In this document: in pieces, positions 1 to 3,703 of the stretch
Layout of the letters: every line of letters starts with the position of its first letter
Numbering within the stretch: position 1 is the first letter of the stretch
The notes under the pieces: model-generated
The model's database searches: none
What the model saw: only the letters and a program-made list of their open reading frames with translations
What the model was told of the DNA's origin: nothing
Made by a program: the position numbers and the translations under genes
Sequence record: X15639.1
DNA length: 3,703 nt
Strand: one strand, 5' to 3'
Source of the DNA: Escherichia phage P1

Positions 1-9
1 AATAAATTT
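1..9 (+). promoter_or_regulatory. Partial C1-type operator (Op51-like), truncated by the window edge
   Basis: The window opens with AATAAATTT, which equals the 3' nine bases of the 17-bp asymmetric P1 C1 operator consensus ATTGCTCTAATAAATTT (from memory). Its position upstream of the immI promoter fits, but a 9-mer AT-rich match could be chance. Confidence 0.3.
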
Positions 10-47
10 GTATTTTTAAGTCGCGAATGCTATCTTTTCGCATCATA

Positions 48-76
48 TTGACCTTTTAATCGTTCAGGCTTATAGT
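48..76 (+). promoter_or_regulatory. Sigma70-like promoter, candidate immI promoter driving c4-icd-ant
   Basis: TTGACC at 48-53 (5/6 to TTGACA), exact 17-bp spacer, TATAGT at 71-76 (5/6 to TATAAT), with an AT-rich stretch upstream. Predicted start near 83, ahead of the a1/b1 sites and c4. Confidence 0.45.
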
Positions 77-108
77 TCCACCGTCGTAGCAAATTCTGCG
101 ACCGGTTT

Positions 109-128
109 TGACAGCCTGAATGTTAGTG
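109..128 (+). promoter_or_regulatory. Upstream antisense target sites (a1/b1-like) for the c4 RNA
   Basis: TTGACAG at 109-115 and GTTAGTG at 122-128 are exact complements of CTGTCAA (246-252) and CACTAAC (233-239) in the c4 candidate. The same two motifs recur in the same order at 276-311. Confidence 0.45.
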
Positions 129-198
129 CGGACAACCGCAGATTTCCGATATTGCGGTATTTTTGTGTCCGTAAACCGCGTTACGCCCGAATTATGGT

Positions 199-270
199 GG
201 GGCGTGATGGGGAGGCTTCGGCCTGCTGGTTTCACTAACGCCAGTCTGTCAACCCTGTCACGTCCTGCCA
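199..270 (+). ncRNA. c4: c4-like antisense RNA (immI repressor RNA) with a tRNA-like acceptor end; boundaries approximate
   Basis: GGGGCGT at 199-205 can pair with ACGTCCT at 260-266 (7 bp including G-U pairs), followed by a single base and CCA at 268-270, resembling a tRNA acceptor stem, consistent with the RNase P processing reported for P1/P7 C4. Internal hairpins: AGGC-TTCG-GCCT at 213-224, and a stem 226-229/241-244 whose loop carries b' CACTAAC (233-239). a' CTGTCAA (246-252) follows. b' with flanks (228-240) is complementary over about 12-13 bp to 304-316, covering the icd Shine-Dalgarno. Confidence 0.5.
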
Positions 271-275
271 CCTGT

Positions 276-316
276 TTGACAGCGGGTAGCAGGTTGTTAA
301 ACCTGTTAGTGAGGCC
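276..316 (+). promoter_or_regulatory. Downstream antisense target sites (a2/b2-like) overlapping the icd ribosome-binding site
   Basis: TTGACAG at 276-282 (a2) and GTTAGTGAGGCC at 305-316 (b2). b2 contains the GAGG Shine-Dalgarno (311-314) located 8 nt before the ATG at 323, so c4 pairing would occlude ribosome binding. Confidence 0.5.
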
Positions 317-322
317 GTAACT

Positions 323-565
323 ATGGTTAATGCCAATCCTTGCACACGCCCAGAATTCATCTGGCGTTTCTATTCCTGTAAAAAACACCACTATCACTTC
401 GTTATCGCAGCAACTGAAGACGAAGCACGCTCTCAATTGCCTGATGGCCCTGCATTTTTACTGCCCGTTTTTCTACTAACTCGCGCAATTCACTTAGTTA
501 CTGGAACCTCCCCTTCTCTGCCGACGTTCAGGGGGGTTTATGAAAAAACCTCTCGTCACCCGTAA
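323..565 (+). CDS. icd: Icd-like small protein (80 aa), likely translationally coupled to ant
   Basis: ATG at 323 preceded by GAGG at 8-nt spacing. The ORF ends at 565, overlapping the ant start (540) by 26 nt in a different frame. Position between c4 and ant matches P1 immI order. No recognisable domain by eye; assignment is positional. Confidence 0.5.
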   Translation: MVNANPCTRPEFIWRFYSCKKHHYHFVIAATEDEARSQLPDGPAFLLPVFLLTRAIHLVTGTSPSLPTFRGVYEKTSRHP

Positions 566-1508
566 TGAAATAGCCGAAGCGATCGCTTTGCATACTGCCT
601 GTATGCCGACACGGGAGATCCCCGGCGCAATTGCTAACTATTTCATGATAACCAGGCGTTTTTATACCCGAACAGATAAGGCTGTGATCAACAGGCTACT
701 GATAGCCGAGATCAGGGATTATTTGATTGAACAAGGACGTCTACGTTACGCAACAGTGGCAGCAGAAATAAGAAAGGAGGCACATAGAATGACCGGTAAT
801 AATTTGAATGTTGAAAAAACAGCACCTGTTACGTCAGCTACGCCAGCACCAGCCGTGAATATCATCCCCAACACCGGAGACACAATCGACAGCCAAACAT
901 TGTTGAAGATGGTCAATGAGGCACGCAAGTTATGTGGAGAACCAGAGGTTAGAAACAATAAATTCATCGAAAAAATACTCGATGAACTTGAAGGTGAATT
1001 TTACACAAAAAGTGCAAAATCCCATGGCACAAGGGCTGGGCGCTCTTTTGAGGTCATCACCATGACCTACAAACAAGCCCTGCGAGTCGCCGCGCGCGAG
1101 TCAAAAGCGGTCCGCCGTTCGCTGATCGACAAACTGGAAGAATTGCAGCAGGCAAACTCCCCTGCCCCATCGATCCCCCAAACATTACCAGAAGCTCTAC
1201 GCCTGGCTGCCGAGTTGGCAGAACAGAAAATGCAGCTGGAACAACAGCTGGTGGCCGCAGCCCCTAAAGTAGATTTTGCCGACCGGGTATCAGTGGCTAA
1301 TGGAATCCTGATCGGGAACTTTGCAAAGGTCGTTGGACTTAAGCAAAACGCCCTTTTCTCATGGTTGCGCCAGAACGGCATTCTCATGGCTTTTGGTGCG
1401 CGCAAAAACGTACCGCGCCAACAGTACATCAACGCCGGGTATTTCACGGTGAAAGAAGTGGTGCTGGATGATGAAAATGGCTACCAGATACGGCTGACGC
1501 CCAATTAA
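540..1508 (+). CDS. ant: Antirepressor Ant1 (322 aa): N-terminal extension, Rha/AntA-like domain, ANT/KilAC C-terminal domain; C-terminus looks truncated by a frameshift
   Basis: ATG at 540 preceded by a G-run (531-536). Central region (around residues 115-200) resembles Rha/AntA-type phage regulatory domains. The C-terminal 111 aa (DNA 1173-1505) align at roughly 65% identity with the C-terminus of the downstream KilA-like protein. Pro/Ala/Thr-rich linkers separate the modules. Confidence 0.85.
   Translation: MKKPLVTRNEIAEAIALHTACMPTREIPGAIANYFMITRRFYTRTDKAVINRLLIAEIRDYLIEQGRLRYATVAAEIRKEAHRMTGNNLNVEKTAPVTSATPAPAVNIIPNTGDTIDSQTLLKMVNEARKLCGEPEVRNNKFIEKILDELEGEFYTKSAKSHGTRAGRSFEVITMTYKQALRVAARESKAVRRSLIDKLEELQQANSPAPSIPQTLPEALRLAAELAEQKMQLEQQLVAAAPKVDFADRVSVANGILIGNFAKVVGLKQNALFSWLRQNGILMAFGARKNVPRQQYINAGYFTVKEVVLDDENGYQIRLTPN
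789..1508 (+). CDS. ant: Ant2, in-frame internal initiation product of ant (239 aa as encoded)
   Basis: Perfect AAGGAGG at 774-780, 8 nt upstream of an in-frame ATG at 789. The product length (about 263 aa if the C-terminal frameshift is repaired) is close to the 266-aa KilA paralog. P1 ant is known to give nested Ant1/Ant2 products. Confidence 0.5.
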   Translation: MTGNNLNVEKTAPVTSATPAPAVNIIPNTGDTIDSQTLLKMVNEARKLCGEPEVRNNKFIEKILDELEGEFYTKSAKSHGTRAGRSFEVITMTYKQALRVAARESKAVRRSLIDKLEELQQANSPAPSIPQTLPEALRLAAELAEQKMQLEQQLVAAAPKVDFADRVSVANGILIGNFAKVVGLKQNALFSWLRQNGILMAFGARKNVPRQQYINAGYFTVKEVVLDDENGYQIRLTPN

Positions 1509-1594
1509 CGGGTAAAGGCCAGCAGTGGTTAACTCGCAAGCTACTTGATGCTGGTTTGTTAAAACCAGTAGCAATAGGTTAACAAAAGAAAAAA

Positions 1595-1620
1595 ACCTGC
1601 CAGCAAACTGGCAGGTTTCT
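1595..1620 (+). terminator. Rho-independent terminator downstream of ant
   Basis: Perfect 9-bp stem ACCTGCCAG (1595-1603) / CTGGCAGGT (1608-1616) with loop CAAA, followed by TTTCT. An A-run precedes the stem. Confidence 0.6.
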
Positions 1621-1660
1621 GAGCAGATCGTCCAACCCGATCTGGATCGGGTCAGAAAAA

Positions 1661-1677
1661 TTTGCTCTAATAAATTT
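1661..1677 (+). promoter_or_regulatory. C1 repressor operator-like site (Op53-like) upstream of kilA-repL
   Basis: TTTGCTCTAATAAATTT matches the C1 operator consensus ATTGCTCTAATAAATTT at 16 of 17 positions (consensus from memory), 70 bp upstream of the kilA ATG. TTGCTC within it could serve as the -35 of an overlapping promoter, but no convincing -10 was found. Confidence 0.55.
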
Positions 1678-1695
1678 CGTTTTCTAAGTGCAAAG

Positions 1696-1719
1696 AATCA
1701 CCATTTCGAGCTGGTGATT
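1696..1719. promoter_or_regulatory. Perfect 8-bp inverted repeat with 8-bp spacer in the kilA leader
   Basis: AATCACCA (1696-1703) and TGGTGATT (1712-1719), located between the Op53-like site and the kilA Shine-Dalgarno. Could be a protein-binding palindrome or a leader RNA hairpin. Confidence 0.3.
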
Positions 1720-1746
1720 GAAGGTTGATGCAAATTTGGAGAAAAA

Positions 1747-2547
1747 ATGCAACAAACATTCAATGCGGATATGAATATATCAAACCTTCATCAAAATGTC
1801 GATCCTTCAACCACTCTGCCCGTTATTTGTGGTGTTGAAATTACGACCGACCGCGCTGGCCGTTACAACCTTAATGCTCTACACAGAGCGAGCGGACTCG
1901 GTGCCCATAAAGCGCCAGCTCAATGGCTAAGAACGCTGTCAGCTAAACAGCTCATCGAAGAGCTTGAAAAAGAAACTATGCAGAATTGCATAGTTTCGTT
2001 CGAAGGCCGTGGCGGCGGCACTTTTGCCCATGAATTGCTCGCTGTGGAGTACGCAGGCTGGATTTCTCCCGCGTTTCGGCTGAAGGTAAACCAGACATTT
2101 ATCGACTATCGAACCGGAAGATTACAACCTGCTATTCCGCAGAGTCTCCCTGAAGCTCTCCGTTTGGCTGCCGACCTGGCAGAGCAAAAGCAACGGCTGG
2201 AGCAAAAAATGCTTATGGATGCACCTAAAGTCGAATTCGCTGAACGCGTTGCTACCGCCAGCGGGGTTCTAATCGGCAACTATGCCAAAGTGCTCGGCCT
2301 GGGCCAAAACTATCTCTTCACCTGGTTGCGTGATAACGGAATTCTGATCGCAACCGGTGAACGCAGGAACGTCCCCAAACAAGAATACATATCTCGTGGG
2401 TATTTCACCCTTAAAGAAACCGTGATCGATACAAGCAATGGAAGCAGGATTTCTTTCACGACTCGTATAACCGGCAAAGGTCAGCAGTGGCTGATGAAGC
2501 GATTGCTTGATGCTGGTGTGCTGGTACCTGTCGCGGCAACGCGCTAA
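1747..2547 (+). CDS. kilA: KilA-like protein (266 aa): KilA-N DNA-binding domain plus KilA-C/ANT C-terminal domain
   Basis: GGAG at 1738-1741, 5 nt before the ATG. Residues around 25-125 carry KilA-N hallmarks (YNLNALHRASG, PAQWLR, GRGGGTFAHELLAVEYAGWISPAFRLKV). The C-terminal 137 aa (DNA 2134-2544) is paralogous to the Ant C-terminus. Architecture matches phage P1 KilA. Confidence 0.88.
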   Translation: MQQTFNADMNISNLHQNVDPSTTLPVICGVEITTDRAGRYNLNALHRASGLGAHKAPAQWLRTLSAKQLIEELEKETMQNCIVSFEGRGGGTFAHELLAVEYAGWISPAFRLKVNQTFIDYRTGRLQPAIPQSLPEALRLAADLAEQKQRLEQKMLMDAPKVEFAERVATASGVLIGNYAKVLGLGQNYLFTWLRDNGILIATGERRNVPKQEYISRGYFTLKETVIDTSNGSRISFTTRITGKGQQWLMKRLLDAGVLVPVAATR

Positions 2548-2576
2548 CAGACGTAGTAAGAACCACCAGCATTGTA

Positions 2577-3422
2577 ATGCTGGCTAAAGTCACTTTCCTG
2601 AGCTGTATAACGATGAGCGATTTTACTTTTTCTGGCTATGAATTGGCCTGCTTTGTAACACACTCCGGTCTATCCCGTAGCGCCGGGCATATCCTGTCGC
2701 AATGTGCAAATCTCGCGGCAACAACCAGTGAATACTTCATTCACAAGCCTCACCGCCTGATCGCGGCAGAAACTGGTTATAGCCAATCAACCGTCGTTCG
2801 TGCATTCCGTGAAGCTGTAAACAAAGGAATTCTGTCTGTAGAGATTGTTATCGGCGATCACCGTGAACGTCGCGCTAACCTGTACCGGTTTACACCATCC
2901 TTTTTGGCCTTCGCACAACAAGCCAAAAATGCGCTGATAGAAAGCAAATTAAAGATCTCTTCAGCGGCAACCAAGGTTAAAGCTGTTCTCGCTAAGACAT
3001 TGGCTTTATTTAATTTTTTATCCACACCCCCATGTCAAAATGATACCCCCTCCCCCTGTCAGGATGACGTGGCAATAAAGAATAAGAAGTCACAAGTTAA
3101 AAAAACAAAAAGATCAGTTTCCGGCGGTGCCGGAACAACCAGCCTCAAAAAATTGACTTCATGGATCGCTAAGGCAAAAGCAAAGGCTGACAATCTGCGG
3201 TTATCCAAAAAACGCACTCAAAAACATGAGTTCAAGCAGAAAGTAGAGGCGGCTGCGCGGAAATATGCTTACCTGAAGAACAAGCGTTCGCCTGATATTG
3301 GCGGGATATCAAACTTCGATAACCTACCGCATTGCATGACGGTAAACGAAGCTCTTAATGCGGTTTTAGCCAAAAATAAAGATAACGAACAATGGGGTAT
3401 ACCGGCAGGATTCAGAGGGTAA
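2577..3422 (+). CDS. repL: RepL-like lytic replication protein (281 aa); alternative start at 2613 (269 aa)
   Basis: Long ORF directly after kilA, as in the P1 kilA-repL operon. Winged-helix-like segment (AAETGYSQSTVVRAFREAVNKGIL) and a Lys-rich basic C-terminal tail. No clear Shine-Dalgarno before either candidate ATG. Assignment rests on context and size, not on recognised sequence motifs. Confidence 0.7.
   Translation: MLAKVTFLSCITMSDFTFSGYELACFVTHSGLSRSAGHILSQCANLAATTSEYFIHKPHRLIAAETGYSQSTVVRAFREAVNKGILSVEIVIGDHRERRANLYRFTPSFLAFAQQAKNALIESKLKISSAATKVKAVLAKTLALFNFLSTPPCQNDTPSPCQDDVAIKNKKSQVKKTKRSVSGGAGTTSLKKLTSWIAKAKAKADNLRLSKKRTQKHEFKQKVEAAARKYAYLKNKRSPDIGGISNFDNLPHCMTVNEALNAVLAKNKDNEQWGIPAGFRG
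3001..3070. other. Candidate origin (oriL-like) inside repL: AT-rich tract, perfect DnaA box, imperfect direct repeats
   Basis: AT-rich stretch at 3004-3020. TTATCCACA at 3018-3026 is a perfect DnaA-box 9-mer. Imperfect direct repeats CCCCCATGTCAAAATGAT (3027-3044) and CCCCCTGTCAGGATGAC (3052-3068). The P1 lytic origin is reported to lie within repL (from memory). Confidence 0.35.
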
Positions 3423-3424
3423 TG

Positions 3425-3441
3425 AATTGCTCTAATTATAA
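3425..3441 (+). promoter_or_regulatory. Weak C1 operator-like site just after the repL stop
   Basis: ATTGCTCTAATTATAAC: the first 11 bases match the consensus left part ATTGCTCTAAT exactly, and the right part diverges (about 12 of 17 overall). Confidence 0.25.
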
Positions 3442-3464
3442 CCATGCATACTTTCAACACCTCT

Positions 3465-3509
3465 AGTTTGCCATGAGGCAAACTCATAGGTGTCCTGGTA
3501 AGAGGACAC
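3465..3509 (+). other. Two tandem perfect stem-loops downstream of repL, possible terminator or RNA processing structure
   Basis: AGTTTGCC (3465-3472) / GGCAAACT (3477-3484) with loop ATGA; GTGTCCT (3490-3496) / AGGACAC (3503-3509) with loop GGTAAG. No U-tract follows, so not a canonical intrinsic terminator. Confidence 0.3.
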
Positions 3510-3703
3510 TGTTGCCAAAACTGGACGCCCCATTATTGCAATTAATAAACAACTAACGGACAATTCTACCTAACAATAAGTGGAGTTAACATGTTGAACC
3601 GAAGAACATTTAATGTATTCTGCGATGAATCCTGTCACCTACTAAATAATTATATAATAAGGTCATGGTATTAAATACGCTTTAATATTCCGGTCTGACT
3701 CTT

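Follow-up and report, generated by a model that had tools for sequence, protein, structure and literature searches.

A single missing C in a legacy sequence record very probably explains the apparent frameshift in the phage P1 antirepressor gene ant

Introduction

Does the antirepressor gene ant of phage P1 really stop inside its conserved C-terminal domain, or has a base been lost from the sequence that says so? The question is raised by a stretch of 3,703 nucleotides from Escherichia phage P1 (record X15639.1; hereafter the window), in which ant runs into a stop codon while an adjacent frame continues to encode what looks like the remainder of the protein. In P1, the C1 repressor is antagonised by the Ant1/Ant2 complex, and the c4 antisense RNA in turn represses production of that complex (P1 annotation; PMC8546580). 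A first-pass annotation of the window, made from its letters and open reading frames, had offered either a real truncation of the antirepressor or a sequencing error. The second of these is borne out by a CCC allele that is private to the window, where both the old entry X17512 and the P1 genome read CCCC. We conclude that the apparent frameshift in ant is very probably an error of base calling or deposition in a legacy record and that the real ant1 and ant2 genes are intact.

Identity and layout of the locus

The window is the phage P1 immI operon (c4-icd-ant1/2) together with the lytic replicon. Its open reading frames and the P1 annotation give, in order, a1/b1, the C4 RNA, icd, ant1/ant2, kilA, repL and the first codons of rlfA (Table 1). 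Using megablast, we found 99.8% identity to the P1 genome (AF234172/NC_005856), with window positions 1–3672 corresponding to P1 48148–51819; two older entries, X15638 and the immI entry X17512, matched window positions 1578–3588 at 100% and 1–2238 at 99.9% identity, respectively. Both kilA and repL are 100% intact in the window, and their proteins match ones found on 1000 and 609 contigs, respectively. Before position 3648, the window differs from the P1 genome only by two single-C losses, at 448–450 and 1500–1502, and both fall in runs of four Cs preceded by a G (GGCCCC and CGCCCC, respectively).

In the annotation of the P1 genome, a misc_feature covering exactly 48148–51819 ties this span to X15639 and describes it as "99 pct identical, 5 gaps". 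Our alignment places 4 gap positions within window 1–3672, and the difference from the 5 counted by the annotators of the genome probably comes from the way in which the messy 3′ end was aligned. A note on the ant1 coding sequence in the same annotation states that the product is 27 aa longer than an earlier prediction, where the difference seen here is 25 aa; we tentatively attribute this mismatch to a different earlier prediction. The first-pass annotation caught the error in ant, and it missed both this existing record of the discrepancy and the matching error in icd.

Table 1. Features of the window, with positions counted from its first nucleotide
Feature	Position	Strand	Evidence
C4 antisense RNA targets a1/b1	70–122		Rfam
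c4 antisense RNA, locus anchor for the P1 immI operon	190..275	+	Rfam RF01695, 68.8 bits; P1 annotation
icd as read in the window, 80 aa, overrunning the ant start	323..565	+	ORF list, P1 annotation
Second missing C, which frameshifts icd	448..450	+	CCC (GGCCC) in the window, CCCC in P1, X17512 and P7
ant1 as read in the window, 322 aa, ending ...YQIRLTPN and a stop	540..1508	+	ORF list; TAA at 1506–1508; equals UniProt P19655/CAA33659.1
ant2, in-frame internal start of ant1, cut by the same lesion to 239 aa instead of 264	789..1508	+	P1 annotation; equals CAA33660.1
C-run with one base missing, the actual lesion	1500..1502	+	Pairwise alignment to AF234172 and X17512; register comparison with P1, X17512 and P7
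Displaced ant 3′ end, 24 codons plus TAA, last part of the KilAC domain	1508..1582	+	Translation
GC-rich hairpin in the ant–kilA gap, 12 nt past the true ant stop	1595..1617	.	Fold −18.9 kcal/mol, z = −3.35
kilA C-terminal tail, TGKGQQWLMKRLLDAGVLVPVAATR and a stop, the comparator of the first-pass annotation	2470..2547	+	ORF list
Error-laden 3′ end of the record	3648..3703	+	Compared with P1 and P7, many purine-for-purine and pyrimidine-for-pyrimidine differences plus an insertion of 2 nt

A single C is missing near the 3′ end of ant

The ORF list and the translation agree with the earlier observation that ant stops at 1506–1508 and that the next frame codes on from 1508. Translation of 1508–1582 yields TGKGQQWLTRKLLDAGLLKPVAIG followed by a stop. 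The frame that holds this displaced tail is −1 relative to ant, as a 1-nt deletion predicts; it is open only from 1475, and the two frames overlap by 34 nt (1475–1508). The missing base, which had been placed near 1500–1507, could be pinned to the C-run at 1500–1502, which has three Cs in the window (CCC) and four (CCCC) in P1 AF234172, in X17512 and in P7. At the lesion itself, the window has CGCCC-AATT versus CGCCCCAATT in the P1 genome and X17512.

Comparison with the kilA paralog was the basis on which the lesion had originally been proposed, with some 17 of 24 residues said to be shared with the KilA C-terminal tail and one base said to be missing from ant in the DNA alignment. Counting gave 17 identical residues of 24 between the displaced peptide and the KilA tail, and aligning the 3′ ends of ant and kilA with MAFFT required a single-base gap in ant, at ...CTGACG-CCC.... 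The similarity of the displaced segment lies far beyond chance: the repaired protein gains 21 bits on PF03374, and its coverage of that profile extends from position 92 to position 106 of 108.

Repair of the run completes the KilAC domain

Insertion of one C produced a 1044-nt gene with a 347-aa product that is identical to P1 Ant1 (AAQ14019) at 347 of 347 residues and ends in ...TPQLTGKGQQWLTRKLLDAGLLKPVAIG. The repaired protein is thus P1 Ant1 by sequence, as it is by its position in the order c4-icd-ant-kilA-repL. The same insertion gives an Ant2 of 264 aa, versus 239 aa as read. The calculated masses are 38.7 kDa for the repaired and 36.0 kDa for the truncated Ant1, and 29.0 versus 26.4 kDa for Ant2.

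The Pfam profile PF03374 (phage antirepressor KilAC domain, also ANT) has 108 positions and a gathering cut-off of 25.3 bits. Truncated Ant1 scored 85.1 bits on it and covered profile positions 1–92, whereas repaired Ant1, a member of the family, scored 106.5 bits and covered positions 1–106, a coverage equal to that of KilA. Because profile coverage ends at 92 in the truncated protein and at 106 in the repaired one, the stop at 1506 lies inside the conserved KilAC domain and the displaced frame codes for the remainder of it. A search of the PDB with the full-length Ant1 sequence returned no solved relative.

The hairpin that follows ant had been described as a terminator at 1595–1620 behind the repaired gene. 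The hairpin is real, as its z score indicates, and the terminator call goes to the other strand: a consensus scan called 1595–1617 an intrinsic terminator of the minus strand, since the plus strand has only UUUCU after the stem. Within window positions 1591–1620, an A-run lies upstream of the hairpin and UUUCU lies downstream of it (plus strand). The terminator is possibly bidirectional.

The CCC allele is private to one record

We surveyed genome and virus collections for both forms of the run. An exact 31-mer carrying CCC had 0 matches in IMG/VR and 0 in GTDB genome contigs, whereas an exact oligomer carrying CCCC matched 101 stretches in IMG/VR and 4 contigs in GTDB. The 61-mer of the window had no full-length 100% match among 5,426 complete E. 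coli genomes (best matches 98.4%, spanning 62 nt of the record) and none in plasmids or phages. The repaired 62-mer placed 454 E. coli records in the band of at least 99% identity and, among the matches listed, was 100% identical over its full length. For the 61-mer, one record fell in the band of at least 99% in these searches, and the ranking rule bars it from being a full-length perfect match; the reciprocal 62-mer query lists a comparable partial match (H92), whose coverage is confined to query positions downstream of the C-run. This negative result for CCC covers about 660 E. coli genomes, about 650 plasmids and 21 phage entries that carry the segment. Just one record has the allele, and two independent P1 sequences, X17512 and AF234172, disagree with it.

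All 102 of the IMG/VR copies that were fetched read through the region in one frame and stop approximately 25 codons later, so that homologs do not end at the equivalent of position 1508; the P1 genome, X17512 and P7 have the single-frame CCCC form, and the extra C is also present in all natural relatives that could be assessed by the exact-allele scans. The last residues vary among these copies (...VAIG in 86, ...VAAE in 6 + 3 and ...VASLS in 4). Since all 102 read through despite this variation, the frame is kept while the sequence diverges.

The same pattern was seen at the protein level. Ant1 of 347 aa is present on 397 contigs. The 322-aa product is exactly CAA33659.1/UniProt P19655 (ANT_BPP1) and occurs on 0 assembled contigs, and the 239-aa Ant2 is exactly CAA33660.1 and likewise occurs on 0. 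The consecutive accessions CAA33659.1 and CAA33660.1 point to one source record.

Two kinds of match in these searches stand apart from the question of the allele. An exact 32-mer of P1 ant was found in contigs assigned to Acinetobacter idrijaensis (JQCU01000132.1, 319 nt) and to a Bacillota metagenome-assembled genome (JAFAFU010000019.1, 2867 nt); on very short contigs of such unrelated taxa it probably stems from contaminating E. coli, P1 or vector DNA and reflects no real host range. Salmonella phage SJ1 (OQ595196.1) carries, at 1480–1614, only the last ~135 nt of ant, labelled 'KilA protein' and adjoining IS1-type transposase genes. This 24.5-kb record also includes a 'GST-loxP-cre recombinase fusion protein', so that SJ1 has the look of a P1 derivative that was rearranged or engineered. 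As its match is confined to the 3′ end of ant, an uninformative remnant beside IS1, we set SJ1 aside as a witness to the allele.

Other discrepancies in the same record and its contemporaries

An error-prone context recurs within the record, in the C loss in icd and in the degenerate stretch at 3648–3703. The true icd product is 73 aa long and its gene ends in an ATGA overlap with the ant1 start at 540; in the window, the icd frame is lost after codon 43. The window allele of icd had 0 IMG/VR matches versus 79 for the CCCC allele, and the 80-aa product was absent from a collection of 15 billion proteins.

At the 3′ end, the differences are mainly G-to-A and C-to-T, and the last ~10 nt cannot be aligned to P1 or P7. 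A 27-mer from this stretch had 0 matches in IMG/VR. The divergence cuts the rlfA open reading frame (start 3591) to 27 aa. The whole stretch has the appearance of a manual sequencing read that became unreliable towards its end.

X17512 has a discrepancy of its own. At its position 1113 (window 1055, inside ant) it has a G in place of the C shared by the window and the P1 genome; this G is either an error or a variant peculiar to X17512. Because X17512 differs at a site where the window and the genome agree, each of the legacy entries contains errors of its own, and the modern genome serves to decide between the two.

Origin of the apparent frameshift

The reading that we consider very likely, an error in the legacy record, can be set out as a short chain of events. 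One C of CGCCCC in ant would have gone unread in the sequence of ~1989 (X15639, PP1REPLG), turning CCCC into CCC at 1500–1502. This artificial 1-nt deletion would shift the last 25 codons of ant1 and ant2 into the −1 frame and bring in a spurious stop at 1506–1508. The real gene would then be 1044 nt long, encode an Ant1 of 347 aa and an Ant2 of 264 aa with a complete KilAC domain, and end 12 nt before the hairpin that separates ant from kilA. Four things were observed directly: the lesion, the absence of the CCC allele from all other sequences surveyed, the perfect repair and the completion of the domain. As to the cause, we infer a gel-reading error, namely band compression in a G+C-rich C-run, rather than a mutation of the clone. 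Loss of one C from a G-flanked run of four Cs is a typical result of band compression in manual gel sequencing.

A mutated clone would nevertheless yield the same letters. The C deletions in icd and ant could truly have been present in the sequenced clone as loss-of-function changes, picked up or selected during cloning if these genes were harmful on multicopy plasmids, and it is suggestive that the two frameshifts strike exactly icd and ant, the potentially toxic genes of the operon (icd is a cell-division inhibitor according to the P1 annotation), and leave kilA and repL intact. Yet kilA, also annotated as host-killing, has no lesion, and c4, the repressor of icd and ant, is intact in the fragment, so that selection against these two genes would be weak. 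Both losses, moreover, sit in a context known for compression misreads, and the 3′ end of the same record is obviously misread. We therefore regard a clone mutation as unlikely. Were it true, the record would be an accurate read of a double loss-of-function clone, which is still not wild-type P1; under a gel error and a clone mutation alike, the feature is an artefact relative to wild-type P1.

The other two explanations take the sequence at face value. Some P1 lineages might carry a 322-aa antirepressor that misses the end of the KilAC domain, for which one can cite the window alone and proteins of 326–333 aa in the Ant clusters, which may well end elsewhere. The survey speaks against such an allele, with CCC absent from IMG/VR and GTDB, no full-length perfect match to it among the E. 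coli, plasmid and phage carriers and the truncated proteins on 0 contigs, and so does the position of the stop within a conserved domain; a natural truncation is very improbable and effectively refuted by these populations. Alternatively, programmed −1 ribosomal frameshifting or transcriptional slippage might join the frames into a full-length Ant, a scheme to which the 34-nt overlap and a downstream frame coding for a conserved domain segment would lend themselves. The first-pass annotation had thought this improbable for lack of a slippery heptamer, and rightly so: the stretch 1460–1510 contains neither a strict X XXY YYZ heptamer, whatever the phase, nor a homopolymer of at least 5 nt. The two-frame layout is not conserved either, since it occurs in no relative: the IMG/VR copies (102/102) and all reference phages are single-frame. 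With that arrangement absent from every other genome examined, we consider programmed frameshifting refuted, and its probability close to nil.

Consequences for reference sequences and comparison with known systems

No new feature is involved: the gene is ant of P1 as already known, and the P1 genome annotation both records the discrepancy and implicitly corrects it. The discrepancy has little biological weight, as P1 Ant1 is a 347-aa protein with a complete KilAC domain, as in the 2004 genome annotation, and the window leaves the known relations of Ant1/Ant2, C1 and c4 unmodified. A full-text literature search found no relevant paper on X15639, P19655 or PP1REPLG. The frameshifted products nonetheless persist as UniProt P19655 (322 aa), CAA33659.1 and CAA33660.1. 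If these are taken as the Ant reference, whether for domain boundaries, structure prediction or constructs, the last 25 residues of the domain are lost, and icd and the beginning of rlfA are likewise misrepresented in this record. We propose the three entries as candidates for a curation fix.

Compared with known systems, the window agrees with P1 Ant1/Ant2 (AAQ14019/AAQ14020, AF234172) in the gene itself and in its operon context (C4 RNA, icd, kilA, repL). It differs from them by the absence of one C at 1500–1502, so that the product has 322 aa (Ant2, 239 aa) and a spurious end, ...TPN and a stop. From P19655, CAA33659.1 and CAA33660.1 the products of the window do not differ at all; these entries descend from this record and have inherited its frameshift error. 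P1 KilA (KILA_BPP1), encoded 240 nt downstream, has in common with Ant the C-terminal KilAC/Pfam ANT domain, which in both spans profile positions 1–106 of 108. KilA carries an N-terminal KilA-N domain (PF04383) that Ant does not have, whereas the N-terminal half of Ant is unlike that of KilA and is accompanied by the internal start for Ant2. The lesion itself resembles miscalls of early manual sequencing, in that a single base is lost from a G+C-rich C-run, the loss is private to one record and further errors lie near the end of the read.
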